Shown one piece after another: positions 2,013 through 11,271 of a stretch of 11,271 bases of DNA. The position numbers and the translations under genes are program-made. The stretch lies in the IMG/VR virus record IMGVR_UViG_2563366822_000010, positions 1 through 11,271 of that record; one strand, written 5' to 3'. The stretch is from a virus (lineage: Duplodnaviria; Heunggongvirae; Uroviricota; Caudoviricetes). Every line of letters starts with the position of its first letter. The first letter of the stretch is position 1. The notes under the pieces were generated by a model. That model was not told the origin of the DNA. It searched no databases and saw only the letters and a list, made by a program, of their open reading frames with translations.

Positions 2013-2597
2013 TTACTCCATAACAGGGACCGCAGGCCACTCAATATCAGGTGCAGTTGATGTATCAACACGGTTCAGCAACACCCGATACTTTTTCCAG
2101 GCTTCCAGCAATGAGGTTTCTTCCTCCGTTGCAATTTCCAGATCTGCAGCATCCTGAAGCGGCGCAATATGCTCACTGGCTACCTGCATCAGGTTGTTTT
2201 TTGTTTCTTCCGCCTCCCGGATCCGGAACAGTTTTTCTGCTTCCGTATCCTTCACCCAAGCTGTGCCGTTCCACTTCTGAAACTCCCCTTCCGGCGATAA
2301 CCAGGTAACATTTTCCGGTAACGGACCGAGTTCAGAAATAAATAACTCGTCCCCTGACGCTACGTCATAAACCGTTTTACCCCGATGGTCTTCAAAGAGA
2401 TGCCACGATGACTCATCACTGTTGAAAACAGCCACAAAGCCAGCAGGAATATCTGGTGGTGCAATATCGGTACTGTTTGCTGGCAGACCTGTATGAGGCG
2501 GAATATATGCGTCACCTTCACCAATAAATTCATTAGTTCCGGCCAGCAGATTATAAATTTTTATGGTCCGTGCTTGTTCACTCATTCTGAATGCCAT
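2013..2597 (-). CDS. tfa: Tail fibre assembly protein Tfa
   Basis: 194-aa translation ([54 protein letters not shown]...[11 protein letters not shown]) is near-identical to phage lambda Tfa as I recall it. The ATG overlaps the stf stop (TAATG junction at 2595-2599), as in lambda. Confidence 0.93.
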
Positions 2598-5389
2598 TAT
2601 GCAAGCCTCACAATATAGTTAAATGCGATGTTTTTGACGGTGTTTTCCGCGTTACCAGCAGCGTTAACGGTGATGGTGTGTCCATGTGAACCAATCGCAA
2701 CGGAGTGCGCATGAGCACCAATTGGAACAGAGTGCGCATGGTTACCTGTAGTGCTTGTGGCACCAGACCAGGTTCTGGAAGCGTTAAAGTTTACAGGAAC
2801 ACCATAAGTAAATTGAGAGCCCGTAAATCCATGGGCTGGCGCAGAGCCACCCAGTGTAAATGCTCCACTTGCTGTATAGAAATTACCGCTATCACTTCTG
2901 AAGTAACCGAGAGTACCGGTAATTTCCATAGTGCCTCGGCTGTGGTTATGGTCACCAGTGGCATTTGAAGACTTAGTACCATAATCAAACGACGACGTGG
3001 TTTTCGTCCCCAAATCCGTACTGGATGCACTGGCGCTGTGGGTGTGCGATTTAATGCCGTCCTGTTCCTGAGATAATACGGCTCGACCACTGGCAGGTTT
3101 GCCCTTAATCGTCCAGCCACGCATATCAGGGATCACGCCTGACGGATAAGCAGCTGCAAGTTTCGGGTAAGCAGATTTGTCAAAAGTCTGCCCCTGCATC
3201 AGGGCATAACCAGACGGAACGGTATCTGATGGCCACGGGATTGGTGCGCCGACTGGGTAGCTTTCTGGTGGAAGATTTTTCGAGGTATAAACTTCTGCCC
3301 AGTCTTCCTCAAAACCATAACCGTCTCTTGAAGAACGGTAGAACAGACCACGATTTCTGTAATGCGCCTTCATCTGCAGGGTCCGGCAACTTCCGACTCC
3401 GGTATAGAAGTTAACCAGAATATAGCTGTCGCCAGAGCGGGTGACATTGTAAGCGCCTGATTCGGCATTCCAGGGAACGGCTCCATCCGAATCCGCATAA
3501 GCCCCCGTCGAACGTCGGGCAAATGCACCAATATTTTCCGGCGTGAGGTTAATATCCGCCGAGCCATCAAACTTAACACCGTTAATTTTTGGGTCTGCCG
3601 CAAGTTTCGTCGCGGTATCGGCGTTCCCCTTCAGTGCCCCGGTGATCCCATCAGTAACAGACAACGGACCTGAAATAGTCCCTCCAGTTGTTGGCAGCGC
3701 TCCAATATCTGATGGTGTAGGTTTCTGATGTGAGCTATACATCGTATAAACAACACCATCGGTAACGCTGGAAGGCTTACTCGCTGAATATGTTAGCGAG
3801 GTATAAATAGAAACTGACGCATTTGTAGTACAATCCCAATGGATATTTACACTCGTCGCATAATTGCCAATCTCAACGTAAATATCATATATATCGCCGG
3901 ATGTGTTGATCCAGGCGAAATTCGTTAATCCGACGGCTGTACGCTTCCACAAAGCTCCGGTAATCCCTTTGGGGTTTCCATTGCCTGCTCGTAGAACCAG
4001 TTCAGATATACCTGCCTGTTGAGGTGCCCCCACGTTAAATCCAGCGCCACCAATCAATGCGATGTAAACGATGGAACTCGCTTGTGGCATGGTAACCGTT
4101 GCCAGTTTGAACCACCCTGCCCCGCCAGAGAAAGAGATCGTTACTGAATTTAAAGTGCCAATATCTTTCGGTGTTAATGTTATATCCGCAGTCAGTGCTT
4201 TCCCGTTAACTTTTCGGTTAGATGGTACCCTGCCATTCGCATTGTCATTCGCTGCTTTAACTGCCTTCGGTGTCGCGGCAAGCGTTTCAGATGTGCTGTT
4301 GGTTGCACTGCTGAGCTGTACTATCCCCTTTTTCGTCGTACTTGCATCCTCAAGCGCCACGGCGGATGCAATATCCTCTGCCCGTTTTGCCGCTGTCTCG
4401 GCGCGCGTTGCCGCGGATTCCGCCGTACTTTTGCTCTGAGCTGCCGCCGTCGCACTGCCAGCTGCCTCTGTCGCCTTCGTGGATGCCGTCGTGGCGCTGC
4501 CCTTTGCTGCTGACGCCTGTCTGGTCGCCTCATCTTTTGAAGCAGACGCAGATGATGCCGATGACGCCGCCGAACTGGCGGACGATGCGGCAGCCGTTTT
4601 TGAGGATTCTGCGCTGGTTTCCGAGGCTTTCGCGTTCGTTTCGGATGTCTTCGCTGCCTCTTTTGAGGCCGCCGCATCCCGTGCTGAAGTGGCTGCTTCT
4701 GACGCTTTCGTGGTCGCGGTGGATGCAGAAGTGGCTGCTGATTGTTGTGACGCTGCCGCATTCGTTTCTGACGTTTTCGCCGCACCGGCACTGGTAGCCA
4801 CCGCGCTTTTTGAGGACTCTGCAGCGGCAGCACTTTTTGATGCTTCAGTAGCCTTTGTTGATGCCGTTCCTGCGCTGGAAGACGCTGACTGAGCCGACGT
4901 CGCGGCCTGCCCGGCTGATGTGCTGGCTGCACGTGCTGAGCCTGCAGCATCAGTCGCATGGGTTGCCGCCTCACTGGCAGATATGCTGGCATCGCTGGCT
5001 GACTTCTTCGCGGCTGCCGTGTTCTGTGCCACCGCGGACGCGTTACGCGCCACCTCTTCCACCATCAGTTCAAAACGGCGCAGTGCCTCAGGACGGGCAT
5101 CATCCTCCGTCATGGCACCGAGAAAATCATTCAGCGTACCGGGTCGGGAATCTTCATACACGGTGATGGTCCCGGCATGTGAAGGCGGAAAACCTTCAAC
5201 CAGCAGGGTGACGCTGTACTGACCATGCTCAACATCCATGCTGTAACGTCCGGCTTCATCCGGATTTTCAGAGGCCACCGTGTTCACCACCACCGTGCTG
5301 CTGGTTCGTCTGGCCTTCAGCACAATGGTGCAGTTCTGTACTGGTTTTCCTGTGCCATCTTTAAGCACGCCAGAAATTTTTACTGTCAT
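2597..5389 (-). CDS. stf: Side tail fibre protein Stf
   Basis: 930-aa ORF. N-terminus ([28 protein letters not shown]...[14 protein letters not shown]...[15 protein letters not shown]) and C-terminus ([71 protein letters not shown]...[31 protein letters not shown]) match lambda Stf as I recall it. The centre is an Ala/Ser/Thr-rich low-complexity region. A GGTGGA Shine-Dalgarno lies 5 nt upstream of the ATG at 5387-5389. Confidence 0.93.
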
Positions 5390-5401
5390 ACTTTTCCACC
5401 A

Positions 5402-5435
5402 ATAAAAAAGCCCGCAGCAGTGACGCCACGGGCTT
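5402..5435 (-). terminator. Rho-independent terminator downstream of lom
   Basis: Stem AAGCCCG (5408-5414) / CGGGCTT (5429-5435) with a 14-nt loop. On the minus strand the hairpin is followed directly by TTTTTTATT (plus 5402-5409 is ATAAAAAA). Confidence 0.5.
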
Positions 5436-5539
5436 CAGGACAGTGTAACTTTACGTTTCCTCAAACGCAGTTCACCCCATAAGGTGGATGAACCTGCGTA
5501 TCATAACAATATTTACAGAAGATAAATCGGCGTCTGTTG

Positions 5540-6139
5540 TCAGAAACGGTATCCGATACCAACAATAAATGCATCCGTTCGCCAGTCGCCACTACCGGAA
5601 CCTTCATAAGCAAGGTCAATGGTCACGGATTCGGTCGGGTTAAACTGCACGCCAGCCCCCCACGCCAGAGACGTGTTGCTGTGGCGACCGTCATCACTTC
5701 CGGTCAGCACATCGTGCGTTTTCCCCTTGTTGTCAGTTACGCGGAGATAATCCCCGGAGAAAGTCGACACACGGCTGTAAGCCACACCCACCATCGCATA
5801 CGCGCTGAACCATTCATTCACGCGTACAGACGGCCCCGCCATCACGCTGAACCAGCGGTTACGCACGGAATCTTCATGCCAGCGGGTATCGCTGTAGTGC
5901 GTTTTTTTCTCATCTTCAGCATTGGCATAACTGAAGGACGTAATCAGCCCCAGCGCGTCCGTAAACTCATAACGGTATTTCACGTTAATCCCGTTCAGAT
6001 TATCGCTGCCGGGAGCGTTCGTACGGGCATGAAGATACCCCGCGCTCAGTGTGGACTGATGTTCAGACGCCCATGCAGGCGCACCAGATACGGACAGACA
6101 GATGGCTGCGGACAAAATGGCTGCACAAACTTTACGCAT
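5540..6139 (-). CDS. lom: Outer-membrane protein Lom (Ail/Lom/PagC/OmpX family beta-barrel)
   Basis: 199-aa translation (MRKVCAAILSAAICLSVSGAPAWASEHQSTLSAGYLHARTNAPGSDNLNGINVKYRYEFTD...AFIVGIGYRF) closely matches lambda Lom as I recall it. It has an N-terminal signal peptide ending AWA-SE and a C-terminal aromatic residue typical of outer-membrane barrels. Confidence 0.93.
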   Translation of the reverse strand: MRKVCAAILSAAICLSVSGAPAWASEHQSTLSAGYLHARTNAPGSDNLNGINVKYRYEFTDALGLITSFSYANAEDEKKTHYSDTRWHEDSVRNRWFSVMAGPSVRVNEWFSAYAMVGVAYSRVSTFSGDYLRVTDNKGKTHDVLTGSDDGRHSNTSLAWGAGVQFNPTESVTIDLAYEGSGSGDWRTDAFIVGIGYRF

Positions 6140-6161
6140 AATTACCTCTCGCTTTTCTGCA

Positions 6162-6187
6162 ATAAAAAAGGCGCCATTTCTGGCGCC
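6162..6187 (-). terminator. Rho-independent terminator between J and lom
   Basis: Stem GGCGCCA (6170-6176) / TGGCGCC (6181-6187) with a 4-nt loop TTTC. On the minus strand it is followed by TTTTTTATT (plus 6162-6169 is ATAAAAAA). Confidence 0.5.
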
Positions 6188-6206
6188 CGTATATGGGTTA
6201 TAAAAT

Positions 6207-9687
<3,481 letters not shown>

Positions 9688-9696
9688 TCACACTCC

Positions 9697-9726
9697 ATAA
9701 ACAACAAAGCCGCCCAAAAGGCGGCT
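9697..9726 (-). terminator. Rho-independent terminator downstream of the lipoprotein gene, immediately upstream of the J ribosome-binding site
   Basis: Stem AGCCGCC (9708-9714) / GGCGGCT (9720-9726) with a 5-nt loop. On the minus strand it is followed by TTTGTTGTTTAT, then GGAGTGTGAGGA and the J ATG. Confidence 0.45.
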
Positions 9727-9750
9727 CATGAGTTACGACAGGATTAACTA

Positions 9751-10089
9751 TTATTTACATGCATTAACACTATCAGCAAAAATTTTTGGCGTTAATGCTG
9801 GTACACGTTCATAAAGAGTAAAACTACTGCCATTTCCTGCTTTTTTGATATCAAGCACAACATCATATCCCCCCATAGCCTGTGGAACTAAAAGGCTTAC
9901 CCCATTCTCAATAGGAAGGGATGTTATAGGTGTTCCATTACCAGCCCATTGTCTGGATATGCAGCCTGACAATTCATCAATATTTTTTAATGAATTACCT
10001 TCCATTACAGGTTTTCCGGATTTTACGTAATCCAAAGATTTACATCCTGTTAAGGCAATAATCGTGCAGAATAAAATCGTTTTGTTCAT
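9751..10089 (-). CDS. Small lipoprotein (signal peptide with lipobox LTGC); inserted gene between I and J
   Basis: From the ATG at 10087-10089: MNKTILFCTIIALTGCKSLDYVKSGKPV..., i.e. basic N-terminus, hydrophobic core and L-T-G-C lipobox. About 112 aa. It sits in an AT-rich insert (about 9690-10162) that is absent between I and J in lambda. No strong Shine-Dalgarno is visible; the ORF track starts at an upstream TTG (10101), so the start is uncertain. Confidence 0.6.
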   Translation of the reverse strand: MNKTILFCTIIALTGCKSLDYVKSGKPVMEGNSLKNIDELSGCISRQWAGNGTPITSLPIENGVSLLVPQAMGGYDVVLDIKKAGNGSSFTLYERVPALTPKIFADSVNACK

Positions 10090-10162
10090 ATAGCTAACCA
10101 ATAGAATAATTATCAGTGTTCGATATAAATATTAAATTAGTTAGAACATGAGTAAAATAATA

Positions 10163-10804
10163 TTACCGCCCAATTACCACAACCTGACCACCATCCCCTT
10201 CATCTGCCGTGCTGATCTCCTGAGATGCCACACGTGACCCCACGCGCATTTCACCGTACAGAACAGGCAGGACATTGCCCTGGGCAACCATGTTATCCAG
10301 TGAGGAGAAATAGGTGTTCTGTTTGCCGTTATCCGTTGTCTGTGTACGGGGAGTTCTGGCTTTCGGTGCCAGCATCTGCGCCACACCACCAAGCGTCATC
10401 GCCGCACCCATTGAAAAGAGAATGTCACTGAAAGCGATACTGATCCCCGGCATCCAGATTGCCGTAGCAATCAACGCCGCACCCAGCACCGCCTGAAACA
10501 CACCGCCACTTTTTGCTCCCGCAAGACGCGGCACGATGTGGATCACGGCACCATTTGCCAGCGGCTCATTAAGACGGGATGATAATTCGGTTTCTCCTGC
10601 ATCCCGCCCGGCAATCCGTACCTGATACCAGCCGTCGCTCAGTTTCTGACGAAACGCCGGGAGCTGTGTGGCCAGTGCGCGGATGGCTTCAGCCCCCGTT
10701 TTCACACGAAGGTCGATGCGGCGGCCAAATCGTTGCAAATCCCCGTAAAGGCAGATGCGTGCCATTCCCGGTGACGCCAGAGGGAGTGTGTGCGTCGCTG
10801 CCAT
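10163..10804 (-). CDS. I: Tail assembly protein I
   Basis: 213-aa translation (MAATHTLPLASPGMARICLYGDLQRFGRRIDLRVKTGAEAIRALATQLPAFRQKLSDGWYQVRIAGRD...QTTDNGKQNTYFSSLDNMVAQGNVLPVLYGEMRVGSRVASQEISTADEGDGGQVVVIGR) matches lambda I as I recall it. The 5' end overlaps the K 3' end (10702-10804) in another frame, as in lambda. Confidence 0.93.
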   Translation of the reverse strand: MAATHTLPLASPGMARICLYGDLQRFGRRIDLRVKTGAEAIRALATQLPAFRQKLSDGWYQVRIAGRDAGETELSSRLNEPLANGAVIHIVPRLAGAKSGGVFQAVLGAALIATAIWMPGISIAFSDILFSMGAAMTLGGVAQMLAPKARTPRTQTTDNGKQNTYFSSLDNMVAQGNVLPVLYGEMRVGSRVASQEISTADEGDGGQVVVIGR

Positions 10805-11271
10805 TTGTCGGTATACCTCTCTCGTTTACTCAGTTGTTCAGGAATATGGTGCAGCAGCTCACCGTCGCCGCAGTAAATGGCGGCGTGATTCGGCACCGAT
10901 GAACCAAAACAGCACAGCAGCACATCGCCCGGCTGCGCCTCTGTCAGTGCGACACGGTAAAAACCAGTAGCCTCCATATTGTCAAGATAGAGATTCTGAC
11001 CGTGACGCCACCAGTCATCCCCGCGATGAAAATCCGGCATCTCAATCCCCGCCAGATGATAAGCATCCCGGAACAGCGTGTAACAGTCCGTCACCCCGTA
11101 CTCAAAGCGCCGCCCGGTGAGATGCGGCACACAGCGGAACTTATGAATCGTCCCCCGGCAGACCAGCCACCACGGCAAATCGCTCTGCACCTGCAGCCGC
11201 CGGTCAGCCTCACTCAGCCAGGGCAGACCACCGGGGTGGCTGTGGACCAGCGCCACAATCTCACCCTGCAT
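10702..11271 (-). CDS. K: Tail assembly protein K (JAMM/MPN-like plus NlpC/P60-like motifs); probably 5'-partial at the window edge
   Basis: Translation contains a JAMM-type metal-binding signature HSHPGGLPWLSEAD and a C-terminal papain-like arrangement (Cys in GVTDCYTLF, His in NHAAIYCGDG), the domain pair described for lambda K. Synteny (upstream of I, overlapping it) supports the call. The ORF is open to the last base of the window, and the JAMM motif sits only about 10 residues from the first visible Met, so the real start is probably beyond 11271. Confidence 0.88.
   Translation of the reverse strand: MQGEIVALVHSHPGGLPWLSEADRRLQVQSDLPWWLVCRGTIHKFRCVPHLTGRRFEYGVTDCYTLFRDAYHLAGIEMPDFHRGDDWWRHGQNLYLDNMEATGFYRVALTEAQPGDVLLCCFGSSVPNHAAIYCGDGELLHHIPEQLSKRERYTDKWQRRTHSLWRHREWHASAFTGICNDLAAASTFV

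Follow-up and report, generated by a model that had tools for sequence, protein, structure and literature searches.

A tail-operon moron encodes a predicted lipoprotein outside the Cor, Llp and Bor families in a lambda-like prophage of Escherichia coli

Layout of the locus and boundaries of the cassette

We analysed a stretch of 11,271 nucleotides (the window), which is the tail end of a lambda-like prophage of E. coli with its tail genes reading on the minus strand. Followed in that direction, the window holds a partial K gene (10702-11271), the tail assembly gene I (10163-10804; Pfam Lambda_tail_I, E 4e-24; "tail assembly protein" in RefSeq) with its TAA stop codon at 10163-10165, and an inserted cassette of about 425 bp and 34% GC (about 9738-10161). 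A leader of 73 nt (10090-10162), with a weak Shine-Dalgarno sequence, precedes the one gene of the cassette, a lipoprotein ORF of the phrog_914 family (9751-10089 including the stop codon). Downstream lie a terminator-like hairpin in the I-J spacer (9707-9727), the tail tip gene J, split in two (9684 to 6207, with its ATG at 9684), lom (5540-6139), a side tail fibre gene (2597-5389) and a tail fibre assembly gene (2013-2597). Two antisense plus-strand ORFs within the cassette, at 9845-10030 and 9930-10061, were rejected as unsupported. The stretch from I through the ORF to J is 100% identical in E. coli ATCC 11775, UTI89, APEC O1, S88, IHE3034 and others. In ATCC 11775 the prophage adjoins a remnant of ompW, and the ORF is annotated as WP_001332187.1, "hypothetical protein".

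The left end of the window carries two genes on the plus strand, one for a two-transmembrane SLATT protein (1-552; PADLOC RTasSLATT, E 3e-57) and one for a UG17-class defence-associated reverse transcriptase with a YVDD motif (524-1900; RT_UG17, E 8e-159). Lying just past the tail fibre assembly gene, the pair resembles a cargo module for anti-phage defence at the edge of the prophage, and in ATCC 11775 a gene for a SAM-dependent methyltransferase takes its place.

The cassette stands out by composition. Measured in 200-nt windows, the flanking tail genes have a GC of 0.55-0.62, which drops to 0.33-0.39 between I and J; the ORF has 36% GC, the leader 21% and the whole window 50%. When a 1301-nt query across the I-J junction was compared with phage records, 110 matched and every one of them covered less than 80% of the query, showing that the cassette is absent from these related phages; the best 15 of the 110 cover 65-66%, in two pieces. 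Alignment with phages Ayreon and vB_EcoS-640R1 places the insertion of about 425 bp between a point just past the I stop codon and about position 9738, downstream of which the hairpin and the J ribosome-binding site are homologous in all three. An initial reading of the DNA, made from the sequence only, had described an AT-rich interruption of the I-J junction of about 470 bp; the low GC stands, but the length comes down to about 425 bp, since the final 45 bp or so are ordinary I-J spacer.

A moron, as defined by Juhala and Hendrix, is extra DNA of deviant base composition with a promoter and a terminator of its own (PMC3594210). The first two of these properties, extra DNA and deviant base composition (34-36% GC, with 55-59% in the flanks), are found in the cassette, and the GC of the lipoprotein gene lies 8-23 points below that of its neighbours in every enterobacterial context. 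A description as extra, compositionally foreign accessory DNA in the tail operon, encoding a predicted exported lipoprotein, is supported, and such a product is most naturally read as acting at the cell envelope. Such a cargo cassette, a moron in Hendrix's sense, would have been acquired horizontally and dropped between the I stop codon and the I-J hairpin.

The I-J hairpin and expression signals

Directly before the J ribosome-binding site we find a hairpin of nine pairs at 9727-9707, GAGCCGCCT-TTT-GGGCGGCTT, followed by the T-rich tail TGTTGTTTAT, so a hairpin with a T-tract is present just where the sequence-only reading had placed one. That reading had also taken it for the cassette's own terminator. 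This is not supported, as a homologous hairpin occupies the same spot in lambdoid phages that have no cassette. The copies in Ayreon and vB_EcoS-640R1 differ by one compensatory pair change (G:C in the window, A:T in those phages), and the depositors of Ayreon annotated its I-J hairpin as a terminator. Because the hairpin is shared with cassette-less phages, the cassette would have landed upstream of an existing I-J hairpin. The hairpin together with its T-tract (9697-9727 in the window, minus strand; L072 and L073) is conserved in lambdoid phages that have no cassette, which with the compensatory pair change suggests a maintained RNA or terminator element within the late tail operon, one where cargo may land. 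A hairpin also lies 3' of the lipoprotein gene in each of the nine tail-module loci read (L002, L061-L063, L065, L067, L068, L070 and L071), and a clear T-run follows it in all of these except L061.

A strict promoter scan of the window returned no minus-strand site. A relaxed scan of the leader gave TTTACT-16-TAATAT at 10156-10129 and TTAATA-15-GATAAT at 10135-10109; these agree with the consensus at 8-9 of 12 positions, which is unremarkable in a leader of 21% GC. The proposal that the gene is expressed in the lysogen thus lost ground: the promoter-like matches are weak and no more than chance would give, and in relatives the gene follows closely on K. Where it lies between K and I, it starts about 30 nt past the K stop codon behind a strong ribosome-binding site, and in several relatives the simplest reading makes it a late-operon gene. 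Late transcription is anti-terminated in the lambda paradigm. Given its sense orientation within the late tail operon, the gene is expected to be expressed in lytic growth, on read-through; the AT-rich leader might also drive expression in the lysogen.

The lipoprotein and its family

The ORF runs on the minus strand from an ATG at 10089 to a stop at 9751-9753 and encodes exactly 112 aa, reading MNKTILFCTIIALTGC and then KSLDY.... Its N-terminus, MNK-TILFCTIIA-LTGC, combines positive charge, a hydrophobic stretch and a lipobox, and the mature protein has Lys at +2. Lipoproteins of this kind are processed by Lgt, LspA and Lnt and sorted by the Lol pathway. The sequence-only reading had reported an ORF of roughly 112 aa with the lipobox LTGC, and direct reading bears out both, with the signal peptide (aa 1-15) and lipobox at 10042-10089 and Cys16 at 10042-10044. 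By rule ([LVI][ASTVI][GAS]C within the first 35 or so residues, applied as a regular expression), 133 of the 140 family members have a lipobox, and none of these (0/133) has Asp at +2; exactly three cysteines occur in the mature part of 116 of the 133. By this signal, Cys16 is predicted to be the lipidated first residue of the mature protein. Since Lys rather than Asp occupies +2, the E. coli +2 rule predicts sorting to the outer membrane.

A PHROG scan assigns the protein to phrog_914, a family of unknown function (E 7.3e-33, residues 1-112 against profile positions 1-118). The same family is the sole PHROG match of three distant homologues and of the protein of phage Fraca. A profile search of 1.8 billion representative proteins found 125 clusters (at 50% identity) with E up to 1e-3, nearly all of 105-125 aa; the long multi-repeat matches P0091, rich in Ig_7 repeats, and P0115 were judged to be repeat or low-complexity hits. 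C16, C43 and C111 are invariant in the family alignments, and the lipid cysteine, C43, C111, K35, W48 and G63 are kept down to 22-30% identity. In a comparison of 13 E. coli alleles from IMG/VR loci, those differences that recur are synonymous and fall on third positions, and the six amino-acid changes are mostly rare: L58I, V77I and I37V are conservative, G63E, P27T and E39V are not. By sequence conservation, then, the phrog_914 ORF is a real, conserved gene and not a chance ORF. It is also a gene that occasionally decays, as seen in a few E. coli copies (L058-L060) with frameshifts (matches of 335 or 338 nt against 336) and truncated ORFs.

Other searches gave little. A Pfam scan of the lipoprotein at E up to 1 matched no family, Bor, TraT, YebO and DUF3568 included. 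The sole NCBIfam match was a weak one to the VirB7 lipoprotein (E 0.08), confined to the signal peptide, and a profile search of PDB sequences likewise matched signal peptides only. PADLOC models gave no match to the lipoprotein, and Rfam returned only GcvB, with 19.6 bits where the gathering score is 42, which we took as chance. In E. coli the gene is annotated as hypothetical everywhere, across 337 genomes. Literature searches on phrog_914 and WP_001332187 found no paper, and those on morons, lipoproteins and exclusion found no title or abstract on the family.

Predicted structure

The fold is predicted with confidence (pLDDT 84). In the model, the mature part of about 96 residues is a compact domain of beta-alpha-beta4-alpha order, in which C43 of helix 1 and C111 of the C-terminal helix probably form a disulfide. 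Fold searches place it closest to the Francisella lipoprotein Flpp3, which its PDB entry title calls a virulence determinant. Flpp3 (DUF3568), DUF302 and the N-terminal domain of BamC are its fold relatives, all of them small alpha+beta domains of the helix-grip or TBP-like kind; identity to the three is only 6-13%, and Pfam gives no DUF3568 match. The likeness to Flpp3 is one of a shared common fold; it says little about function. Llp is absent from the matches listed by two fold searches.

Genomic distribution

The cassette is present in 337 of 5426 complete E. coli genomes (about 6%) at 95% identity or more, at varied chromosomal positions and usually in one copy, and homologues are common in prophages of Klebsiella and Enterobacter. 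In tail modules the gene occupies three slots. E. coli carries it between I and J. The junction of K and I holds it in Fraca (Hendrixvirinae; 31% identity), in L062, L070 and L071, in the Klebsiella locus L082 and in common Klebsiella prophages (P0013), and this slot is kept in the rhizosphere phages L076 and L080, whose copies are only 23-24% identical. In L063-L068 a third slot is used, flanked by the T chaperone gene and a tape measure gene of the HK97 type. This slot is the place of gene 15 in HK97, which was the first moron to be described and is proven to act in superinfection exclusion (PMC3594210).

Other cargo sits beside the lipoprotein gene at the K-I junction. L061 has a 4.8-kb island of Arc-like, Bro-N, KilA-N and HTH genes there (2063-6911), and single genes adjoin it in L076 (DUF6414, 5910-6963), L080 (DUF4760, 1335-1844) and the Fraca locus L002 (phrog_2320, 7725-7994). 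The K-I junction of HK97- and lambda-like tail modules is thus a cargo hotspot. The two Klebsiella loci L082 and L083 also encode giant J-like proteins (from 6054) of 3111 and 3367 aa, respectively, with a CBM_4_9 domain.

Family members occur outside tail modules as well. One lies in a large integrative element, adjoining a gene for an AAA_15/AAA_21 ATPase. Another, at 949-1290 of L078, is on the opposite strand of a small element with capsid, protease, portal, terminase and D5_N primase genes; the part read has no tail genes, and the element resembles a capsid-forming satellite. Carriage by mobile elements that have no tail is consistent with an accessory function that stands alone. Taken together, phrog_914 genes behave as mobile accessory cargo with a marked preference for the tail-tip and tape-measure region of siphophages. 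That preference may reflect function, or merely junctions that tolerate insertion.

Relation to J

The sequence-only reading had suggested that the lipoprotein blocks the receptor used by this phage's J, which it called divergent. The J of the window is not notably so, its last 197 aa being 99% identical to those of the VT1-Sakai and PPompW phages, and these phages do not have the lipoprotein gene. In 35 IMG/VR loci with a complete J and a lipoprotein of 98-100% identity, J shows four types in its last 160 residues. The commonest (24 loci) is the type that the J of the window resembles; similarity to this type is 62% and 41% for two of the others and undetectable for the third. The lipoprotein gene lies on the 5' side of J, 3.4 kb upstream of the receptor-binding end, and Fraca carries both a phrog_914 homologue and a true cor gene (phrog_1119, E 7e-34). 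The same allele alongside at least four J ends, the position upstream of J, the cor gene of Fraca and the J-end twins that have no lipoprotein gene all argue against a blocker matched to the receptor of its own phage and make that proposal improbable.

The earlier caution that no likeness to Cor was claimed proved sound. A PHROG scan at E up to 1 gives only phrog_914, BLASTP against the Cor of Fraca aligns only the surroundings of the lipobox (E 0.19), and the homology search against Cor and Llp that had been proposed as a check yields no similarity to the lipoprotein in sequence or fold. More broadly, neither the sequence searches (PHROG, Pfam, PDB profile and BLASTP) nor the fold searches linked it to Cor, Llp, Bor or any other known exclusion protein. 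On this sequence evidence, the product is a tail-operon moron lipoprotein that is not in the Cor, Llp or Bor families.

The J of the window is itself disrupted. An 82-bp tandem duplication splits it into ORFs of 744 and 424 aa, with the 5' ORF at 7450-9684 interrupted near 7450-7530. The duplication lies within 7386-7530 (minus strand), consists of perfect 63-nt repeats at 7386-7448 and 7468-7530, and has a 21-letter peptide encoded twice. The best-ranked matches among the 5426 complete E. coli genomes all span the stretch without it (319 bp for a 401-nt query), which points either to a peculiarity of this source or to a mistake in the assembly. Should it be real, the prophage cannot make J, while its lipoprotein ORF is intact.

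Discussion

At present, the gene is an ordinary cargo gene of the tail operon, hypothetical in function and probably not a receptor-matched blocker. The reading we prefer is tentative, with a probability of roughly 0.38, and sees in it an envelope-level blocker of siphophage entry that would not be keyed to its own phage's J end. From the Lys at +2, we infer a lipoprotein attached to the inner leaflet of the outer membrane, on its periplasmic side, an accessory exported protein rather than a part of the virion. There it could interfere with the entry of incoming lambda- or HK97-like siphophages, causing superinfection exclusion, and might also protect released progeny from wasteful adsorption. 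The blocked step would not be set by the receptor-binding end of its own phage's J; candidates are the passage of the tail tip or the tape measure protein across the periplasm, or some part of the envelope that is not the receptor of its own phage. There is precedent in Llp and Cor, outer-membrane lipoproteins with a single disulfide whose action from the periplasmic side is a well-documented means of excluding phages (PMC9586334). As a counterpoint, the protein matches no known exclusion protein, no convincing promoter was found, and the same slots hold unrelated cargo (DUF6414, DUF4760, Arc/Bro-N/KilA-N). Its nearest structural match, Flpp3, is moreover described as a virulence determinant and not as a protein that excludes phages.

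Foremost among the alternatives, and in itself unlikely, is a factor for host fitness or virulence that acts by lysogenic conversion in the manner of Bor or Iss, conferring serum resistance, stress tolerance or adhesion with no phage exclusion. Identical copies are listed in hosts that include the extraintestinal pathogenic strains UTI89, APEC O1, S88, IHE3034 and NU14, yet the family is spread through phages of soil and rhizosphere and through non-pathogens. The best structural match is Flpp3, a Francisella virulence determinant by its PDB entry, while Pfam matches neither Bor nor TraT. Members in tail-less islands would suit a host factor, and so would an ORF that is intact though the prophage's J is disrupted; the tail-module slots, however, are kept across very distant phages, and the scans gave no promoter from which a lysogen could express the gene.

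That no promoter was found points the other way for the next candidate, a late lytic helper that would be exported and act on the envelope of the dying cell, not in the lysogen; it might, for instance, keep debris away from progeny or alter the peptidoglycan or outer membrane near lysis. We consider this doubtful. It would account for the sense orientation inside the late operon, for the tight spacing and strong ribosome-binding site at the K-I junction, and for a K-I position that is kept even at 23% identity, but most related phages do without the gene. Deviant GC and three different slots, moreover, indicate mobile cargo and not a core function, and copies occur on the opposite strand of a satellite-like element and in an integrative island.

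A Cor/Llp-type blocker of the phage's own receptor is improbable. Its appeal is that the protein is small, sorted to the outer membrane by prediction and endowed with a conserved cysteine pair as in Llp and Cor (PMC9586334), and that its gene sits in the tail-tip cluster. Yet one allele goes with at least four J C-terminal types and lies upstream of J, not beside the receptor-binding end; phages with 99%-identical J ends have no such gene, Fraca has a true cor too, and likeness to Cor or Llp is absent in both sequence and fold.

The conservation data effectively refute a non-functional filler, that is, a chance ORF in AT-rich junk DNA: a weak ribosome-binding site, no promoter found in the window and a few frameshifted copies speak for it, and full-length family conservation with cysteines invariant to 23% identity, a confident fold (pLDDT 84) and mostly synonymous polymorphism speak against it. 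Two further candidates were set aside, an o-spanin of the Rz1 type, for the wrong genomic place, the lack of a partner gene and a protein too large and folded, and a virion structural protein, since the lipoprotein signal marks the product for export.

To return to receptor-independent exclusion, it can be carried one step further, to a speculative proposal that is more doubtful still than a blocker of the phage's own receptor. Here phrog_914 as a whole would be a widespread and so far unrecognised class of periplasm-facing, post-adsorption exclusion factors against lambda- and HK97-like siphophages. Their target would be a conserved part of the tail tip of the incoming phage, either its tape measure protein or its JAB/NlpC-P60 enzyme of the K type, whose gene usually precedes theirs. 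A post-adsorption block of this kind would explain why the gene, even at 23% identity, stays with the K-I-J or tape-measure module and is indifferent to the J end. If true, it would be the Gram-negative siphophage counterpart of T4 Spackle or streptococcal Ltp.

The carriers include well-studied extraintestinal pathogens (UTI89, APEC O1, S88, IHE3034) and the type strain. Should exclusion independent of the receptor be borne out, phrog_914 would add a new family to the few envelope-level exclusion mechanisms of Gram-negative bacteria and would bear on the prediction of host range in phage therapy; should the gene be a fitness factor, it would be a further case of lysogenic conversion.

Comparison with known systems

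Cor and Llp bind and inactivate the phage's own receptor, FhuA, and the crystal structure of the FhuA-Llp complex has been solved. The Cor proteins of T1, phi80, N15 and HK022 and the Llp of T5 are exclusion lipoproteins of the outer membrane that face the periplasm and contain one disulfide, and the genes of known and predicted exclusion lipoproteins lie directly downstream of the receptor-binding gene (PMC9586334). The protein described here resembles them as a small phage-encoded lipoprotein with predicted outer-membrane sorting, a predicted periplasmic orientation, a predicted disulfide and a gene in the tail region. It differs in that its mature part has about 96 aa, against about 60, and in that its gene lies upstream of J instead of directly downstream of the receptor-binding gene. 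Unlike them, it is not tied to one J end, coexists with cor in Fraca and belongs to phrog_914, not phrog_1119.

A likeness of another kind is to lambda Bor and to Iss, the plasmid-borne serum-resistance lipoprotein, which are outer-membrane lipoproteins of about 100 aa, as the present protein is predicted to be, with Bor likewise carried as prophage cargo. The bor gene adjoins the lysis genes, outside the tail module. By contrast, the cassette lies in the tail module, and its product has no Pfam Bor match.

HK97 gp15 excludes phages without a receptor block and depends on features of the incoming tail, a mechanism of the sort we propose for the lipoprotein. It is a YebO-like inner-membrane exclusion protein encoded by extra DNA in the tail operon (PMC3594210). 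The cassette, too, is extra DNA in a tail operon, and homologues of the lipoprotein occupy exactly the gp15 slot, whereas gp15 is an inner-membrane protein with no sequence relationship to the lipoprotein that Pfam detects.

Ltp lets the phage adsorb but then stops DNA injection, through an action on the tape measure protein of the incoming phage. This prophage lipoprotein of Streptococcus phage TP-J34 mediates superinfection exclusion (PMC3952083). It differs from the protein described here in its Gram-positive host, its unrelated sequence and fold and the place of its gene in the lysogeny module. As a prophage lipoprotein in its own right, Ltp provides the functional model for a blocker without receptor specificity.
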